The translations under genes were made by a program, and so were the position numbers. The notes beneath the pieces were generated by a model. That model was not told the origin of the DNA. It was given only the letters and a program-made list of their open reading frames with translations, and ran no database searches. A stretch of 49,779 bases of DNA. Origin: a virus. Location of the stretch: positions 1 to 49,779 of the IMG/VR virus record IMGVR_UViG_3300021387_001333; one strand, given 5' to 3'. Below, one piece after another: positions 3,841 to 10,719 of the stretch (its first letter is position 1; every line of letters begins with the position of its first letter).

Positions 3841-4116
3841 ATGAAGTACAAGCTCTACGCATCCTATGGCGTTCTCGCTCATGAAAAAACTCCGATTTTC
3901 TCAGACACCATCCCCGCATCCGATGCCTACAGTGTGATCACGGTCGAAATCCCGGACGAGTATCCGCTGTCGGAGAACGACCTCGGCGAAACCCTGATTG
4001 ATATCGAAGGGAAAACGTACCTCTTGCAGGAAGTCCTAAAGAACAAAGGTGACGATCCTGTACTAAGCTGGTATGACGGTCACTCCTACCATACCGTCCC
4101 GCTTATGGTTGTCTGA
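3841..4116 (+). CDS. Hypothetical protein
   Basis: ORF track; GGAGGGCAACAC at 3828-3839. Confidence 0.6.
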   Translation: MKYKLYASYGVLAHEKTPIFSDTIPASDAYSVITVEIPDEYPLSENDLGETLIDIEGKTYLLQEVLKNKGDDPVLSWYDGHSYHTVPLMVV

Positions 4117-4139
4117 TTCTTATGAATAACAAATTATAA

Positions 4140-4166
4140 GCCGCCCATAATCGGGCGGTTTTTTTA
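4140..4166 (+). terminator. Rho-independent terminator
   Basis: CCGCCC-ATAATC-GGGCGG followed by T7. Confidence 0.75.
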
Positions 4167-4210
4167 TTGCCCGTAAACAGCACTTTTTCCAGCTGAAACC
4201 AGCACCAAAG

Positions 4211-4247
4211 AAGCCCTTGGCGATCATCGTCAGGGGCTTATTTTTTT
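4211..4247 (+). terminator. Rho-independent terminator
   Basis: 9-bp stem AAGCCCTTG/CAGGGGCTT (one G.U pair), then A and T7. Confidence 0.7.
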
Positions 4248-4276
4248 GCGAAAATTTCAGCGAAGGAGGCGATCAG

Positions 4277-4435
4277 ATGAACGTTTTCATTGCCCGAATG
4301 ATTGACTGCGGACTGTCACGAGAAACCGCTCTCGCTGTCTGCCGTTACTATATGCGCTACAAAACCATTGCCGATCTTGCCGAATACGTCACCGCTCTGG
4401 AGGCTGAAACATATGGCCGTATGGAAGCTGTATAA
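4277..4435 (+). CDS. Hypothetical small protein
   Basis: ATG 4277 follows GAAGGAGG, in the frame of ORF 4217..4435. Confidence 0.55.
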   Translation: MNVFIARMIDCGLSRETALAVCRYYMRYKTIADLAEYVTALEAETYGRMEAV

Positions 4436-4799
4436 CCCTTCCCCGGTTGGTCGAAATGTCGGCGACTGTTCCGTCCGGGCTGTTGCAAAAGCACTTGATA
4501 CGGATTGGGAAACCGCTTACGCCCTGATTGCGATGAACGGCTTCCTGATGGGCGATATGCCGAGTTCGAACGCCGTCTGGGGCGCGGTTCTCCGGCAGAA
4601 CGGTTTTTCGCGTTACGCCGTTCCGAGTACCTGTCCCGATTGCTACACCATCGGAGACTTCGCCGATGAAAACCCACACGGCATTTACGTTGTCGGGACA
4701 GGAAATCATGTCTGCACAATCAAGGACGGCGTGGTTTTTGACAGTTGGGATTCCCGCTCCGAAATTCCTCAATACTACTGGACAAAAGACAACGGTTAA
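4413..4799 (+). CDS. Conserved phage protein with a GDCSVRA motif (possibly papain-like; function unknown)
   Basis: ATG 4413 is in the frame of ORF 4302..4799. The pattern NVGDCSVRAVAKAL...CPDCYT...GNHVCTIKDG recurs in Firmicutes prophages (recollection). Confidence 0.65.
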   Translation: MAVWKLYNPSPVGRNVGDCSVRAVAKALDTDWETAYALIAMNGFLMGDMPSSNAVWGAVLRQNGFSRYAVPSTCPDCYTIGDFADENPHGIYVVGTGNHVCTIKDGVVFDSWDSRSEIPQYYWTKDNG

Positions 4800-4811
4800 G
4801 GAGGCCTTACG

Positions 4812-5225
4812 ATGGCTTATAACAACGGTTTTCCCGTTACCTATCCTCAAATGTTCCCGCAGTACCAGCAACCATATCAAATGCCACAATACCAGCAAAT
4901 GCAGCAGCCAGCGCAACAGCAAATCCAGCAGCCATCCTCCCGGATGGCGGAAGTGTTCCCTGCGGCGAGCGAAAAGACCGTTCTCGAATTTCCCGTTCAG
5001 GCCGGTACGACCGTAATGTTTGTTGCGAATGACGATACCTTTACCGCGATCAAAGAGGCTTCTGTGACCGGGCAGATTACGACCGTTTTCTTTGACCGCA
5101 GACCTCCATCCGCCGCTGAAAAGCCTGTCGATATGGCTCTGTATGTGACCCGTGACGAGCTGGAAAAACGTCTTGCTGCTTTCGGCAAATCGTCCAGAAA
5201 AGAAACGGAGGTAGTTGAAGCATGA
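4812..5225 (+). CDS. Protein with a Q/P/Y-rich N-terminus (function unknown)
   Basis: ORF track; low-complexity N-terminal region of about 45 aa. Confidence 0.65.
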   Translation: MAYNNGFPVTYPQMFPQYQQPYQMPQYQQMQQPAQQQIQQPSSRMAEVFPAASEKTVLEFPVQAGTTVMFVANDDTFTAIKEASVTGQITTVFFDRRPPSAAEKPVDMALYVTRDELEKRLAAFGKSSRKETEVVEA

Positions 5226-5437
5226 GCTTCTTTAATCAGTTAGGAAAAGCCCCGCAGATGCCAGCGACCGGATTTCAGAACATGATGCAACGCTTCCAGC
5301 AGTTTCAGCGCATGTTTTCCGGAAACGCGGAACAACAGGTAAAACAGCTTCTCCAGTCCGGGCGTGTCACGCAGGATCAATACAATCAGGCCGTTCAGAT
5401 GGCGAAGCAGTTCCAGCAGATGATGGGCGGTAAATAA
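5222..5437 (+). CDS. Q/M-rich small protein (function unknown)
   Basis: ORF track; ATGA overlap with the preceding gene. Confidence 0.6.
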   Translation: MSFFNQLGKAPQMPATGFQNMMQRFQQFQRMFSGNAEQQVKQLLQSGRVTQDQYNQAVQMAKQFQQMMGGK

Positions 5438-5498
5438 AAAGCGCAATCCCGCTCAGTGCGCAGGGGCGGTTTGCTAATAAATGAAAGGACATAAAACA

Positions 5499-5961
5499 AT
5501 GGCTCTTACAGATGAAAATGGCGGCACGAACACTACTATGCTCGTCCAGCCCTCCGGCTTCGGCGGAAACGATGGTTTCATGGGCGGGAACGGTTGGTGG
5601 ATCATCCTTCTCTTCATCCTGCTTGGCGGCTGGGGCAACGGCTTCGGCGGTGGTTACGGCGGCTTTGGTGGTGGCATCAACGAACTGTACCCGTGGATGA
5701 ACAACAGTCAGAACATCAATTCCGGCTTCCGGGATCAGATGCTCAACGACAATATTACCTCCATCCGTGACGGCGTATACGGTATCAACAACCAGCTCTG
5801 TTCCGGCTTTGCTGGCGTGAACGCCTCTATCACCGGTGCTCAGAACGCTCTTGCCCAGCAGATGTACACTAACCAGATCGCTGACATGGAACGTTCCTTC
5901 GCCGCTCAGACTGCTTCTACCGCTGGCATGACCGCTCTCCAGTCTCAGCTCGCTCAGTGCT
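5499..5961 (+). CDS. Gly-rich/Cys-rich membrane protein, exon 1
   Basis: ATG 5499 lies 9 nt after AAAGGA. The N-terminal TM segment is embedded in G-rich repeats. The GC-rich coding composition stops abruptly at 5961, and the reading frame is restored at 7255. Confidence 0.7.
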
Positions 5962-6084
5962 TGAAGAAAGTAGTCCAGAAAGTCAAGGACGCTTTCACCT
6001 TCGCAAAATATGAAGCAGTAGGCACTTTAGCGGCGTAATCCGCTATGGCAATCGGGTGAATTGCTGGAAAACCTAAGTTTGCAC

Positions 6085-6113
6085 TTTACTTTCGCACTGT
6101 TTTGTTGTATAAT
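6085..6113 (+). promoter_or_regulatory. Sigma70-like promoter inside the intron (TTTACT, 17 nt, TATAAT)
   Basis: -35 at 6085-6090 and -10 at 6108-6113, just upstream of the endonuclease SD GGAGG (6129-6133). Confidence 0.5.
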
Positions 6114-6141
6114 TAAAATAGAATAAGCGGAGGTGAAGTAC

Positions 6142-7125
6142 ATGTATTATGTGTATGAATGGTTTGTTGTGGAAACTGGCGAGGTAATCTACGTCGGAAA
6201 AGGCACCGGGCGAAGATACAAAGTCAGGAAACACAACCGGCTCTTTAATGAAATGATACGTCGTTTTGAATGCGATAGTAGAATAGTTAAAGAGTTTGGA
6301 ACCGAACGCGAGGCTTTTGAGTTTGAGTTTGTCCGTATAAACGAAATGCACGAACGCGGTCAATGTGTGTGTAACATACATAATGGCGGATATGGTGGAA
6401 CCGTGGAATGGTGGACAGACGAATTGCGGGCGCATTATTCGGAAATAAATGTGATGAAATCAGAAGAGCAACGCAAACGCATGTCTGAAAACAATCCCAT
6501 GAAGGACAAGAAGATAGCTGAAAAGACAAACAGCCGGAAACGGAAAGCTGTAATTATAGGCGAACGTGAATATCCTTCAATTAAGGCGGTTTGTGAGGCT
6601 TACCATACTTCGTCTGAAGTGGTCTCAACGTGGTGCAAAAAAGGTGTCAATGCCCAAGGTGAAAAGTGCAGATACAAATGGCTTGACCAAGCTGAATTTA
6701 CAGACAAACGATATAACAAGGGCGGAAGCCGTGCAGTCGTTTATAAAGATGTTCGGTATGAGTGTATCAAAGATTTCGCCATTTCGATTGGAATCGGCGA
6801 AAGAACGGCATCCGAATGGTTAAAACGTGGATTCAATCCTGACGGAATACCATGCCGGTATGAGAATGATGCGCGCGAACTGGTTTTTATAAATAGACAT
6901 GTTGCGCGGAATAAAGCCAAATCAAAGCCAGTAATTGTAAATGGGGTTGAGTATAAGTCATGCGAAGAGGCAAGTAAAGCACTCGGAATCGCAAAGACAA
7001 CAATCTACTCCTATTTGCAAGGCATAAGGAAAAGCACAAAGTACATTTGCAAATATGGCAATCAGCAGCCAAGCCGGGGGAATACCGATGACAGTACCCC
7101 GGAAGGTTCAACGACTAACAGGTGA
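6142..7125 (+). CDS. GIY-YIG homing endonuclease with repeated NUMOD/IENR-like DNA-binding modules
   Basis: MYYVYEW...GEVIYVGKGTGRRY is a GIY-YIG motif. The protein also has a NPMKD (NUMOD3-like) motif and three repeats of Y-x-S/C-I/C-K/E-x-A/F...W/Y-x-K/Q-G helix modules. The gene is AT-rich relative to its flanks. Confidence 0.85.
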   Translation: MYYVYEWFVVETGEVIYVGKGTGRRYKVRKHNRLFNEMIRRFECDSRIVKEFGTEREAFEFEFVRINEMHERGQCVCNIHNGGYGGTVEWWTDELRAHYSEINVMKSEEQRKRMSENNPMKDKKIAEKTNSRKRKAVIIGEREYPSIKAVCEAYHTSSEVVSTWCKKGVNAQGEKCRYKWLDQAEFTDKRYNKGGSRAVVYKDVRYECIKDFAISIGIGERTASEWLKRGFNPDGIPCRYENDARELVFINRHVARNKAKSKPVIVNGVEYKSCEEASKALGIAKTTIYSYLQGIRKSTKYICKYGNQQPSRGNTDDSTPEGSTTNR

Positions 7126-7254
7126 GGACGGTAGACCAATAATCCTGACACGAGTGCCCGACCCCTACCCGCAAGGGAGGGTGAAGATATAGTCTGAACT
7201 CACGAGGAAACCGTGAGAAGTATAGGATAAAGAACCTATACGATAACATAATTG

Positions 7255-7670
7255 GCTGCGATAACCGCGCCGCGACCGCCGACCTCAAATATACCGTGGC
7301 GACAGAAAACTGCGCCGACCGTACCGCTGCCGCGCAGAACACCCGCGATATCATCGACGCTCAGACCCGTGGCACTCAGGCGATTCTCGACAAGCTCTGT
7401 GCTCTCGAATTGGACGGCGTGAAGGGTCAGCTTGCCCAGGCGCAGCGTGAGAACGTCGGCCTCCAGAACCAGCTCAACATGGCGACCATGCAGGCTTCTC
7501 AGACCGCGCAGAACGCTTTCATTTCTCAGGGCTTTGCAAATGAAGTGGACGCTCTGTACAACCGACTGAACTCCTGCCCCGTGCCCACTACGCCCGTCTA
7601 TGGCCGCACTCCGATTTTCACTTGCAATAACGGCGGATGCGGCTGTGGCGGCAATAGCTTCACTGCGTAA
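7255..7670 (+). CDS. Gly-rich/Cys-rich membrane protein, exon 2
   Basis: The frame is open from 7185 and GC-rich composition resumes at 7255. Joining 5961 to 7255 gives ...LAQCCCDNRAATADLKY... in frame. The C-terminus is CNNGGCGCGGNSFTA. Confidence 0.7.
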
Positions 7671-7676
7671 GGAGGG

Positions 7677-8156
7677 GTGACCGTGGCTGAGTATGTTTAC
7701 AACCCTGTGCAGACCGTTCTCCCGAACCAGAACGTGCTTTTGCAGAGCAGTATTCCTTGCAATCGGGGCTATGTGATTCACCGTAACGGCTCCGGCATCC
7801 TTACTCTGCGTGGTTGCGTCAATGGCACCGGCTGTTTTGCCCGGTATCAGGTTACGGCAAACATGAACATTGCGCTTCCGTCCGATGGGGCTGTCGGCCC
7901 TGTATCTGTTTCCCTCGCCATTGACGGCGAACCGATCCAGACGAGCAAGGCAATTTTCACTCCGGCGGCAGTTGCGGATAATCCGCCGACGGACAACAAC
8001 TTTGGCAATGTCACCAGCACGGCTATCATCACCGTTCCCCGTGGCTGTTGCTACACGATTGCCGTTGAAAATACGTCCGCTGGCTTGACGGCGGCTGATC
8101 CTTCACCCGCAATCCTTGTTAAAAATGCCAACCTTACCGTAACCCGTATAGCCTGA
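7677..8156 (+). CDS. Beta-rich Cys-containing protein (BclA-C-terminal/C1q-like pattern, tentative)
   Basis: ORF track (GTG start after GGAGGGGTGA). The alternating hydrophobic beta pattern ending ...NANLTVTRIA recalls exosporium BclA C-terminal domains (unverified). Confidence 0.6.
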   Translation: MTVAEYVYNPVQTVLPNQNVLLQSSIPCNRGYVIHRNGSGILTLRGCVNGTGCFARYQVTANMNIALPSDGAVGPVSVSLAIDGEPIQTSKAIFTPAAVADNPPTDNNFGNVTSTAIITVPRGCCYTIAVENTSAGLTAADPSPAILVKNANLTVTRIA

Positions 8157-8173
8157 CGGAAAGGAGGATAAAA

Positions 8174-8560
8174 ATGCACGATCTCCACGAACTCAAAGAA
8201 AAACTGCTGAAAGAACTCGAGGAATACGGCGGAAACGCCAAATTCTCCAAAGAAGATGTTGAAACCATCAAATACATGGCTTCCGCCATTGATCATATCT
8301 GCAATATTTCTGAGGATGAAGAAGGCTATTCAAACCACTACCCGTATTACATGGGCGGTTCTTACGATGACGGCATGAACCGTAACGGCTCCTACCGTGG
8401 GCGGAGCTACGCCGGACGGCGCAACGGCCGCCGCGACAGCATGGGACGCTATTCACGTGAGGGCCTTGCCGACAAGATGCGTGACCTGATGGACGAAGCC
8501 CCGGACGAACGTACACGTCAGGAAATCCAGCGCATGATTGAGAAGTTCGAAAACAACTGA
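8174..8560 (+). CDS. Hypothetical protein with an R/G/S/Y-rich centre
   Basis: ORF track; SD AAAGGAGG upstream. Confidence 0.65.
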   Translation: MHDLHELKEKLLKELEEYGGNAKFSKEDVETIKYMASAIDHICNISEDEEGYSNHYPYYMGGSYDDGMNRNGSYRGRSYAGRRNGRRDSMGRYSREGLADKMRDLMDEAPDERTRQEIQRMIEKFENN

Positions 8561-9134: not shown

Positions 9135-10220
9135 TCATGTATCAGGATTATTCGCCGTTTCTGTTTTCTTTTGCATATCATTCCGCATATTTAACGCCTC
9201 GTTTAAGCGGTTTTTGGCCTCTTTTTCCCGCTCTGTGCCGGGGTGGTCATAGATGCGGAGGATCATCTTTTCATCGGCATGACCCATCCAAATAATAGCT
9301 TGGTGCATATCAACGCCAACGTCCCGGAGCATGGTACAATAGGAGTGCCGGAGATCGTGGGGCCGGATGCTGACGGGATGACCGGCGGCAGCGGAAAGGT
9401 CCTTCATGTATGATTCCCACGCCCACTGGAAAGAGGTTTCCGACATCATACCGCCGGATGCGCTTTTTGCAATGTAGCCGTCTATTTGCTCCAGATAGGG
9501 TTTTAAAACGTCCGGCACTGGGACCGCCCTCTTGCCCGCCTCTGTCTTTGGAACGTCCAAAACGGGGCGGTTTGAGTTAAAAGAGACGGCTTTATTGACG
9601 GTAACGGTTCCGTTGTGGATGTCGGAAGCTTCAAGGGCCAGCACTTCCCCGCGCCGGAGGCCACAGTAAAGCATGATCAGGGCGGGGAGCTGCATCCGGT
9701 GAGGCGTGGTCAGGATCAGCTCCCGCTCTTCCTCCGTGATGGCCCGGTGTGTGCCTTTTGTTCCCTTGGGAGGCTTGACGGATGAGGCATTGCAGGGGTT
9801 TTTCCTGATATAGTTAGCATCGACGGCGGACTGGAAAACGGCTCTGACCAGGATGCGGGTTTTGTGGATGTAGGAGGAAGAGCGGTTTTTGAGGGAAGCC
9901 AGCAGCTCAGAGATATGGTCGCTGGTCACGTCCCCAAGCTGCTTGTCGCCGATCTTGTCGAGGGCGGTGCTGAGGATGGACACATAGCAGTTATACGTCG
10001 TAGGCTTTACGTCTGCTTTGTAGACGGGGAGCCAGTAGGCGGTATATTCGGAGACGGTTTTGCTCTCCGTGTACAGTCCTTCGGCTTCCTGCCGCTTGAA
10101 CTCTTCACGCTTGGCGAGCGCTTCGTCCTCCGTGGCTCCCATGAACTGACGTCCTTTGTAGACGCAGCAGTATCTTCCGTCTTTGCGCCTTTTTAGGTGC
10201 TGTTTTTTCGGGCGTGACAT
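9135..10220 (-). CDS. int: Tyrosine integrase
   Basis: Start at the MSRPKKQ ATG (10220), inside ORF 9135..10289. The C-terminal catalytic pattern is ...GLRRGE...RPHDLRHSYCT...GHADEKMILRIYDH. Confidence 0.9.
   Translation of the reverse strand: MSRPKKQHLKRRKDGRYCCVYKGRQFMGATEDEALAKREEFKRQEAEGLYTESKTVSEYTAYWLPVYKADVKPTTYNCYVSILSTALDKIGDKQLGDVTSDHISELLASLKNRSSSYIHKTRILVRAVFQSAVDANYIRKNPCNASSVKPPKGTKGTHRAITEEERELILTTPHRMQLPALIMLYCGLRRGEVLALEASDIHNGTVTVNKAVSFNSNRPVLDVPKTEAGKRAVPVPDVLKPYLEQIDGYIAKSASGGMMSETSFQWAWESYMKDLSAAAGHPVSIRPHDLRHSYCTMLRDVGVDMHQAIIWMGHADEKMILRIYDHPGTEREKEAKNRLNEALNMRNDMQKKTETANNPDT
9170..9193 (+). repeat. attP arm repeat, copy 2 (inside the 3' end of int)
   Basis: TTTGCATATCATTCCGCATATTTA, with one mismatch to 8947-8970. 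Confidence 0.5.
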
Positions 10221-10221
10221 A

Positions 10222-10719
10222 TTATTTAAAAGAAAACGGGGCGATTGTAAAATCACGCATAAAAACAGCGGCATTAAAGCCGTTTTCAATCACAATGTAT
10301 TGCCCATCCTCTAAGTGAACCCTTGCTTCTGTAGGTGTTCCGCTTTCATATTCATCGTAATACTTATTTTCGTGGTTGGCAACTACAATTCTTCCAACCC
10401 TCTTTTTATATTCAAATGATTCGTCTTTTGGGTATCCTTCTCCCCATAGGAAAACACATATTCTCATACTGATATTCGTGCGCCCAACATCAGCGCATTT
10501 TATGATCCAGTCTCCGGCCGGTATATCTTTCCCGACCTGCCATATGCCTTGAGGCACTTGTACTTCCTTCCACTCTGGACGATTCATCATTTCAAACTGG
10601 CAGTTTCGGCGAAGCTCTGCAAGTTCATCAAAAGATAGTTTGGAAAGGTCTATATCTTCCGCAACGGCGGCAGGGATCAGCAGACAAAGAATCAGTGAAA
10701 CGGCAAACAGCTTCTTCAT
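10222..10719 (-). CDS. Secreted protein with a signal peptide (lysogeny-operon moron)
   Basis: MKKLFAVSLILCLLIPAAVAED is a Sec-type signal peptide. The gene is AT-rich and packed between the repressor and int with gaps of 0-1 nt. Confidence 0.75.
   Translation of the reverse strand: MKKLFAVSLILCLLIPAAVAEDIDLSKLSFDELAELRRNCQFEMMNRPEWKEVQVPQGIWQVGKDIPAGDWIIKCADVGRTNISMRICVFLWGEGYPKDESFEYKKRVGRIVVANHENKYYDEYESGTPTEARVHLEDGQYIVIENGFNAAVFMRDFTIAPFSFK

Follow-up and report, generated by a model that had tools for sequence, protein, structure and literature searches.

We found that a 1293-nt insert in a phage gene, at positions 5962–7254 of the 49,779-nt stretch of viral DNA in IMG/VR record IMGVR_UViG_3300021387_001333 (hereafter the window), is very probably a mobile group I intron, IA-like and with its own GIY-YIG homing endonuclease. 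The breakpoint against an intron-less relative and the covariation of the predicted helices among 18 copies of the intron put the observation far outside chance; the Rfam score of a copy at the same site without the endonuclease open reading frame (ORF) adds to them. An earlier note, made from the letters of the window, had proposed a group I intron with these ends; the drop in GC content, core motif, hairpins, terminal G, ORFs and promoter string that it listed were all found where it had placed them. A mobile group I intron of canonical form that encodes a GIY-YIG endonuclease is a kind of element already known. We infer from the sequence that the window copy splices. The exons, the intron and its parts described below lie on the plus strand.

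Host gene and splice junction

The GC fraction is 0.50–0.59 in the flanks and 0.38–0.45 inside the insert (about 6000–7100). The window has ORFs at 5481–6038, 6133/6142–7125 and 7296–7670, and the first and last of these are halves of one gene. The gene starts at ATG 5499 (MALTDEN...), matching its homologs. Exon 1 (5499–5961) holds codons 1–154 and the first base of codon 155, and exon 2 (7255–7670) runs from the last two bases of that codon through the stop. Joining 5961 to 7255 gives 463 + 416 = 879 nt, in frame and encoding 292 aa. Ligated exons would read ...CAGTGCT|GCTGCGAT... at the nucleotide level, the joined ORF from ATG 5499 reads ...LAQCCCDNRAATADLKY..., and the protein reads ...LAQC-C-CDNR... 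across the junction.

The joined protein has more than 8000 uninterrupted matches of about 290 aa, at identities reaching 98% over its full length. When 17 homologs are aligned, C154-C155-C156 is invariant and the junction is free of gaps; Butyrivibrio phage Ceridwen has an uninterrupted 275-aa homolog (QHJ73768) that is 65% identical across the junction. The DNA comparison was made with an intron-less bovine-rumen contig (L004), which encodes a protein (P0004) 98% identical to the joined one. By blastn, window positions 4003–5961 (93.7% identity) and 7255–7625 (94.6%) align to its adjacent bases 6463|6464. Since the alignment breaks at 5961|7255, the insert is exactly 5962–7254; it is polymorphic for presence and absence at one exact site, in diverged host genes. 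Homolog alignment and DNA breakpoint thus agree on the in-frame junction 5961|7255 first proposed in the note, and comparison of the joined protein with uninterrupted homologs, a check that it had suggested, fixed the junction there. Its second candidate, 5958|7255, which gives CC, is excluded, since CCC is invariant in the homologs and the DNA breakpoint is unambiguous. Junctions 5961|7252, 5960|7254 and 5959|7253 are excluded as well, because the invariant QCCCD together with the breakpoint fits 5961|7255 only.

One could suppose that there is no intron here, and that two independent neighbor genes flank a free-standing homing endonuclease gene. Gene callers do annotate three separate ORFs at such loci, and free-standing GIY-YIG genes are common in phages. 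Yet thousands of uninterrupted homologs match the two outer ORFs as a single protein, and both ends of the insert are defined to the base. The endonuclease gene has non-coding flanks that build a covarying group I core, with P1 and P10 pairings to both exons, and the ORF-less copy scores above the Rfam threshold. We give this arrangement next to no credence, and keep the group I intron.

The host protein has a Gly-rich N-terminal hydrophobic segment, long helices, the invariant CCC and a Cys-rich C-terminus. The gene falls in PHROG 16490 ("unknown function"), and searches of Pfam, NCBIfam and PHROGs gave no functional annotation. The AlphaFold model of a 98% identical homolog (P0002) has a predicted local distance difference test (pLDDT) value of 36.5. 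The label "moron-like envelope gene" given earlier is not supported; the family is a very large one, with more than 8000 matches, and is conserved among phages. The intron interrupts the most conserved codons and DNA positions of the host gene, which is typical homing-endonuclease behavior; such enzymes typically target highly conserved positions (PMC3984707).

Ribozyme fold and covariation

Relatives of the intron were gathered through the endonuclease protein (656 protein matches), and 5 loci were collected from encoding contigs, 36 from viral contigs, 8 from genomes and 80 from metagenomes. For covariation, 18 distinct copies were used; the ORF was deleted, the 5′ and 3′ segments were joined across the P5a loop, and the copies were aligned with MAFFT. 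The window copy served as structure reference, its pairs being projected onto the alignment columns and then counted.

Standard pairs occupy 95.0% of 1448 cells, as compared with 34.8–40.7% when partners are slid by 1–3 columns. Changes on both sides occur in 46 of 82 pairs (shuffle mean 27.6; none of 500 shuffles reaches the observed count), and the covariation score is 0.388, against 0.147 in shuffles. Compensatory changes are found in P1, P10, both hairpins of the P1 loop (L1), P2, P3, P4, P5, P6/P6a, P7.1, P8, P9 and P9.1.

The intron is preceded by U5961 and its last nucleotide is G7254, the latter being conserved in each of the 24 copies checked at the 3′ boundary. P1 pairs exon-1 AGUGCU (5956–5961) with the internal guide sequence GGCACU (6021–6026), placing the splice-site pair U5961·G6021; it is 100% paired, with a switch between GC and CG in 6 of the 18 copies. 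P10 pairs GCAGU (6015–6019) with exon-2 GCUGC (7255–7259), also at 100%, its outer pair being AU in 8, GC in 8 and GU in 2 copies. Both helices had been put forward in the note, and gain compensatory changes here. The note had found the P1 loop unusually long; the insert in L1 (5966–6015) consists of two covarying hairpins, A (5966–5996) and B (5999–6015), in a three-way junction. The minimum free energy (MFE) fold of 5950–6046 has an 8-bp P1, with U5962-A6020 and G5963·U6019 added, closing this junction and followed by P2. Both sides change in 5 of 6 counted pairs of hairpin A and in 1 of 3 of hairpin B, and the MFE z-score is −2.9. P2 (AGCGG-CGUAAU-CCGCU, 6029–6044) has compensatory changes in 5 of 5 pairs.

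The note had not located the helices P3 to P6. Their 5′ strands lie at 6052–6083, upstream of the ORF; the block P3-J3/4-P4-J4/5-P5 is CAAUCGGGUGAAUUGCUGGAAAACC (6049–6073), and the partner strands of P4 and P5 are inside the 3′ end of the ORF. P3 pairs UCGGGU (6052–6057) with GCCCGA (7156–7161) and forms a pseudoknot with P7; it is 99% paired, has two compensatory pairs, and is supported by the Rfam alignment of the ORF-less copy. After J3/4 (AAU, 6059–6061), P4 pairs UGCUGG (6062–6067) with UCAGCA (7062–7067), P5 pairs CC (6072–6073) with GG (7057–7058), and P5a pairs UUUGCA (6078–6083) with UGCAAA (7048–7053). By column P5a is paired in only 63% of cells, a figure lowered by 1-nt slips of MAFFT in some rows; on inspection its strands are complementary in all copies. 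Compensatory changes in P5 and P5a were noted on inspection and also appear in the count. P6 (7069–7070 with 7105–7106) and P6a (7074–7079 with 7097–7102) have compensatory changes in 5 of 6 pairs.

In the 3′ core, P7 pairs GACUA (7113–7117) with UAGUC (7190–7194), matching the Rfam consensus. P7.1 (7119–7147, CAGG 7119–7122 with CCUG 7144–7147) stands between P7 and the 3′ strand of P3, and P8 (7163–7181) is capped by a GCAA tetraloop. J8/7 (UGAAGAUA) with the 3′ strand of P7 spans 7182–7194, and the J8/7-P7 core GAAGATATAGTC is at 7183–7194. P9 (7199–7217) and P9.1 (7220–7241) are both 100% paired. Compensatory changes affect 6 of 7 pairs in P8, 5 of 6 in P9 and 3 of 7 in P9.1, lending weight to the GCAA-capped and the two P9-type hairpins that the note had recognized.

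Michel and Westhof reportedly defined subgroup IA, in 1990, by extra helices P7.1/P7.2 between P7 and the 3′ strand of P3. All four pairs of P7.1 are compensatory here, and a second helix (P7.2 or P7.1a) inside it was not resolved by the MFE fold; we call the intron IA-like. The extra helices of subgroup IA are also mentioned in PMC3984707.

Endonuclease and its expression

The ORF at 6142–7125, in the P5a loop, encodes 327 aa, read as a GIY-YIG domain (residues ~1–80) followed by three DNA-binding modules that resemble NUMOD or helix-turn-helix (HTH) domains. ATG 6142 is preceded by GGAGGTG, and homologs begin MYYVYEW or MFYVYEW. PHROGs places the protein in phrog_314, "homing endonuclease" (E 3.7e-18), and Pfam finds NUMOD1 (26.8 bits, cut-off 22.8) and HTH modules in it. 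Three homologs (P0128, P0163 and P0210), 72–75% identical to window residues 1–100 and without gaps, pass the Pfam GIY-YIG model PF01541 with 25.3–25.9 bits (cut-off 22.6) over residues 1–72, covering 1–75 of the 78 profile positions. Among 34 family members GIY-YIG is found at E ≤ 0.01 in 7, NUMOD1 in 28 and I-TevI_DNA-bd in 11. Y3-V4-Y5, Y17-V18-G19, R25, E62 and N78 are invariant in the 34 homologs, in keeping with the family signature of GIY and YIG motifs some 10 residues apart followed by conserved Arg, Glu and Asn; the YVY and YVG motifs and the last three residues we take to be equivalents of I-TevI residues.

The AlphaFold model (pLDDT 72) has three repeated ββ-αα modules and an N-terminal domain (2–71) of β-β-α-β-α order, with pLDDT of about 52–80. 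Among its Foldseek matches is the I-TevI catalytic domain (1ln0_B; template modeling (TM) score 0.61, probability 0.96, E 0.22); the UvrC GIY-YIG domain (1yd6_C, TM score 0.50) and the DNA-binding domains of I-TevI and I-HmuI were matched as well. An NCBIfam search of the protein gave nothing useful. The ORF is full length and 96% identical to homolog P0121. By close homology, we accept it as a putative GIY-YIG endonuclease, as the note had read it; its activity and its cleavage site are presumed from sequence.

The last 78 nt of the ORF (7048–7125) comprise the 3′ strands of P5a, P5 and P4, the whole of P6 and P6a, the 5′ strand of P7 and the start of P7.1. The final ~25 residues are near-invariant among homologs (KY.NQQPS.GN.D.ST.EGSTTN), because this stretch also encodes the ribozyme core; it must serve as enzyme C-terminus and as core at once. 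Such "core creep" is known, with overlaps of 9–81 nt in tabulated examples, including the Bacillus thuringiensis nrdF intron (GIY-YIG, 56 nt) and the Synechococcus lividus large-subunit (LSU) intron (81 nt) (PMC3073962, its Table 1). Unlike in those two, the overlapped helices here are P5a′, P5′, P4′, P6, P6a and P7; with 78 nt the overlap comes near the top of the tabulated range, and the whole family conserves it.

A promoter-like TTTACT-17-TATAAT (6085–6113) lies in the P5a loop and is kept in most copies; this string and the Shine-Dalgarno (SD) sequence are both present as described in the note. A hairpin at 6083–6138 would sequester the ribosome-binding site (RBS): its 13-bp stem (6083–6095 with 6126–6138) includes the −35 box on the 5′ side and the SD GGAGG (6129–6133) on the 3′ side, with a free energy (dG) of −22.7 and z = −4.8. 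The SD has at least 4 of its 5 bases paired in 11 of 14 distinct copies, and an RNA started after the −10 box leaves it unpaired. Because the SD is locked in the 13-bp stem in read-through precursor RNA, expression of the endonuclease probably relies on a promoter of its own. Use of this promoter and control at the RBS are suggested by analogy to I-TevI, whose RBS is hidden in a hairpin and which is translated only from an internal-promoter transcript (PMC3073962).

Weighing the identification

Several results weigh against a group I intron with a GIY-YIG endonuclease. An Rfam scan of the whole window at the gathering threshold gave no match, and the window copy itself scores 36.5 bits with RF00028 (Intron_gpI; E 2.6e-7), short of the gathering score of 50. 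P7 is invariant in all 18 copies and gives no covariation signal. The window endonuclease has no match to PF01541 at E ≤ 1, the Foldseek E-values are weak (0.2), a family profile and phmmer run against Protein Data Bank (PDB) sequences gave nothing useful, and hhalign against an I-TevI sequence found no match. The promoter was called solely from its consensus match.

The Rfam gathering score is an operational threshold, not a structural definition. When the whole window was scanned permissively there was one match, sub-threshold, and it was this intron. Its alignment is convincing in the 3′ half (P6, J6/7, P7, J8/7, P9), and in the 5′ half P3–P5 are misplaced into the ORF. The low score arises because the ORF insert of ~960 nt in L5a splits the core and the model cannot span it. 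The ORF-less copy in the same gene and at the same site (L133) reaches 71.0 bits (E 1.6e-16) with an alignment that covers the entire model, 1–253; its core is 82–89% identical to that of the window, and P3, P4, P5, P6, P7, P8 and P9 fall on the same blocks. The Rfam comparison that the note had suggested thus gave a match to the window copy below the gathering score, and passed that score in L133. At its default threshold Rfam misses this intron, whose core is split by the endonuclease ORF.

It might also be that the ribozyme has decayed: the window copy would no longer splice, and the host gene would be a pseudogene split by a selfish insert. Loss might be tolerated in the region that holds the split gene, from the lysis module to the integrase, and intron life cycles include decay, as the endonuclease-less L133 illustrates. 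We think this very unlikely, since every helix is intact in the window copy and the family structure is 95% paired. Both exons are full-length ORFs, 97–98% identical to uninterrupted homologs, and the endonuclease ORF is likewise complete, with 96% identity to P0121. Compensatory changes persist in many diverged copies, implying that folding is still under selection.

A splicing-competent group I intron would act as follows. The transcribed RNA would fold into the P1–P10 structure, and an exogenous G would attack after U5961, held in P1 by the guide GGCACU (6021–6026). The 3′-OH of exon 1 would then attack after G7254, with exon 2 aligned by P10 (6015–6019 with 7255–7259), and ligation would restore ...LAQC-C-CDNR.... 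The endonuclease presumably cuts intron-less alleles near TG(C/T)T|GCTG(C/T)GA, and repair would copy the intron in.

A reading frame open into the intron

In the window the exon-1 frame runs 25 codons into the intron (5962–6038; LKKVVQKVKDAFTFAKYEAVGTLAA). The 25-aa tail starts with the L encoded by 5961–5963 and reads KKVVQKVKDAFTFAKYEAVGTLAA; its stop, TAA 6036–6038, is 75–77 nt into the intron, in the P2 loop. Upstream stops in such introns normally follow the 5′ splice site at once or by no more than 27 nt (PMC3073962, PMC2504315), and the upstream frame generally ends in P1/P2, before the core (PMC2504315).

The frame is open for 9–30 codons and ends in the P2 loop in 62 of 63 distinct copies. 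The sole exception (L128) has an early stop (…LVA*), like the introns of the Clostridium perfringens phages CPQ4 and phiCP13O. Among the 63 distinct 5′ segments L1 falls into nine length classes of 5, 20, 44, 47, 50, 53, 62, 65 and 74 nt, all equal to 2 mod 3; summed over the copies there are 2 stops in frame 0, and 173 and 126 in the two remaining ones. In the 53-nt class variability is biased to the third codon position (0.67/0.61/1.04 for positions 1 to 3), the same ratio as in the flanking exon. The ratio of nonsynonymous to synonymous rates (dN/dS) is 0.37 in frame and 0.78 and 0.61 in the wrong frames (0.47 in the exon). We regard the maintenance of the frame through the 5′ segment of the intron as real; it may reflect ribosome positioning for P1 folding or a selected tail.

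In L203, from a rumen metagenome, a tandem duplication in hairpin A (tail ...KKIFNNLKKIFNNAKKIF...) brings L1 to 74 nt; the 21 nt that it adds are once more divisible by three. In some loci exon-1 alignments ran beyond residue 154, to 165–181, giving the appearance of a duplicated exon-2 segment; this was rejected as a spurious tblastn extension into the read-through tail.

It is conceivable that the 5′ part of the intron has a second, selected role, additional to its part in the intron, with the frame kept open through L1, the guide and the P2 loop. In one version unspliced mRNA would yield a functional or detoxified short isoform, 154 aa followed by the 25-aa amphipathic tail with a small non-polar C-terminus; in another the site of translation termination would control P1 folding and hence splicing. 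The length classes, stop counts, codon-position variability and in-frame dN/dS just given favor such a role, as does the stop position, which goes beyond the literature range. Because the introns of CPQ4, phiCP13O and L128 stop early, the long read-through looks like a derived and maintained state.

There is much on the other side. Lying in P2, the stop still precedes the catalytic core, which fits the general rule (PMC2504315). Much of the amino acid conservation in the tail follows from the constraints of P1, P10 and the stems, and hairpin A pairs third with third codon positions, which by itself brings the apparent dN/dS down. Between close pairs there are 13 synonymous and 40 non-synonymous codon changes, and the copies are phylogenetically related, so that counts are not independent. 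Most alleles of the host gene are intron-less (roughly 2% carry the intron), and therefore the phage does not need the short isoform. We hold a second selected role to be possible though doubtful. It is with the same reserve that we suggest that each unspliced transcript would give a 179-aa product with a conserved amphipathic tail, and that the tail or the termination point is under selection. Were it so, the tail might be a detoxifying or degradation tag, the product a short isoform (a bacterial-virus analog of intron retention), or the termination point a ribosome-timed switch of P1. The mobile group I intron stands whichever applies, and lends itself to asking how a phage tolerates, or makes use of, translation that enters an intron.

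Relatives and comparison with known introns

In all but a few of 41 loci (encoding and viral contigs) the endonuclease lies between halves of the same host gene. The split site TG(C/T)T|GCTG(C/T) is constant even where host proteins are ~30% identical, and the intron is at the same codon in host genes 30–90% identical to that of the window. It is present in roughly 7 of 376 close host-gene loci in IMG/VR (~2%), a frequency that is rough only, the top 80 loci being biased to contiguous matches. Carriers come from rumen and human-gut metagenomes, with metagenome-assembled genomes (MAGs) binned as Selenomonadaceae, Lachnospiraceae, Oscillospiraceae, Ruminococcus and others. Literature searches found nothing specific on this intron or on the host-gene family.

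L133 (1290–1760 of CADBUP010000171, a Ruminococcus MAG) is a snapshot of the endonuclease-loss stage in the intron life cycle: the endonuclease has decayed to ~160 nt with a readable remnant, MYYVYEWY..., and the exon-1 frame is still open to the P2 loop. The insertion site in intron-less loci (L046–L125) reads TGTT|GCTGT in about half; intron-containing alleles examined are nearly all TGCT, with CPQ4 TGTT. With TGCT, P1 retains a G-C pair, perhaps through co-conversion or through selection for a stronger P1.

The 3′ core has DNA similarity to sequences of Clostridium perfringens, Streptococcus and Bacillus phages; the Clostridium matches, which were examined, have a related core. The closest DNA relatives of the core in isolate genomes are CPQ4 (MZ401006) and phiCP13O/phiCP34O (NC_019506/NC_019508), at 71–75% identity over 150–210 nt and with compensatory differences in the stems. 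In CPQ4 the same gene family is split at the same CC|C site, with the endonuclease ORF in the same place, whereas the phiCP13O intron is in a tape-measure gene. The long read-through is missing from both: L1 is short, and the upstream frame meets an early stop after 3–5 codons (…LVA*). Neither intron is annotated. In CPQ4 (L002) it lies at ~1672–2706 and the endonuclease is labeled "hypothetical protein" (QYC53110); in phiCP13O (L003) it lies at ~1583–2650, between gp23 and gp24, both labeled "tail length tape measure protein".

Other Firmicutes phage introns are those of tape-measure, terminase and tail-tube genes in Bacillus cereus-group prophages, of SPO1-like Bacillus phages, of Streptococcus phages and of Staphylococcus phages Twort and K. 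The 3′ module J8/7-P7-P9-P9.1 is 84–86% identical over ~70 nt to Bacillus and Streptococcus phage sequences. Here the host gene and site are others, L1 is expanded to two hairpins, and the read-through is 25 codons, as against at most 9. The likeness is that those introns too sit in conserved phage genes, in phase, with an upstream frame that ends in P1/P2 (PMC2504315).

The T4 td intron (IA2) with I-TevI likewise interrupts a phage protein gene and encodes a modular GIY-YIG enzyme, with a catalytic domain and separate DNA-binding modules. The td upstream frame ends right at the 5′ splice site, as against 75–77 nt in here. The td gene belongs to nucleotide metabolism, whereas the gene split here is a structural or unknown-function phage gene. 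The ORF lies in P6a in td and in the P5a loop here, the core overlap is 20 nt there and 78 nt here, and no direct sequence similarity of the window endonuclease to I-TevI was detected. In both systems the 3′ end of the ORF reaches the P6/P7 core and the RBS is hidden in a hairpin, here a predicted one (PMC3073962).

The intron matters mainly for annotation. At such loci gene callers give three ORFs, two truncated "hypotheticals" and an unnamed protein, and the element goes unannotated both in CPQ4 and phiCP13O and in the roughly 2% of members that carry it in a very large family of rumen and gut phage genes. Its ~100 copies make up a natural record of covariation that is unusually complete for a phage intron and takes in the 78-nt overlap.

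Genome neighborhood

The window is from a temperate siphophage: an integrase (9135–10289, minus strand) is followed by terminase, portal, major head protein, tape measure and tail proteins, and at the far end there is an amidase-like protein. Between the lysis end and the integrase, the split gene belongs to a conserved cluster (4302–8560) of small genes with no known function. Its PHROGs 3754, 21718, 22984, 16490 and 20016 keep their order in Butyrivibrio phage Ceridwen and in many metagenomic phages. Just upstream of the split gene a 71-aa protein (5222–5437) weakly resembles a tape-measure segment (PF06791, 27.4 bits, below cut-off).

A mosaic junction follows the split gene. When 7626–8314 is compared with 6835–8242 of L004, similarity, otherwise 87–95%, is lost shortly ahead of the exon-2 end and picks up again at 8315; relative to L004, the following gene (7677–8156, PHROG 20016) and the very C-terminal end of the host protein have been replaced. 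Farther upstream, the ORF at 1618–2640 matches PHROG 19458, "primase" (E 2.9e-109). The L004 gene at the corresponding place upstream of the split gene has Pfam ArdcN and MPTase-PolyVal domains, so that, judged by position, the ORF may encode an ArdC-like antirestriction protein rather than a primase.

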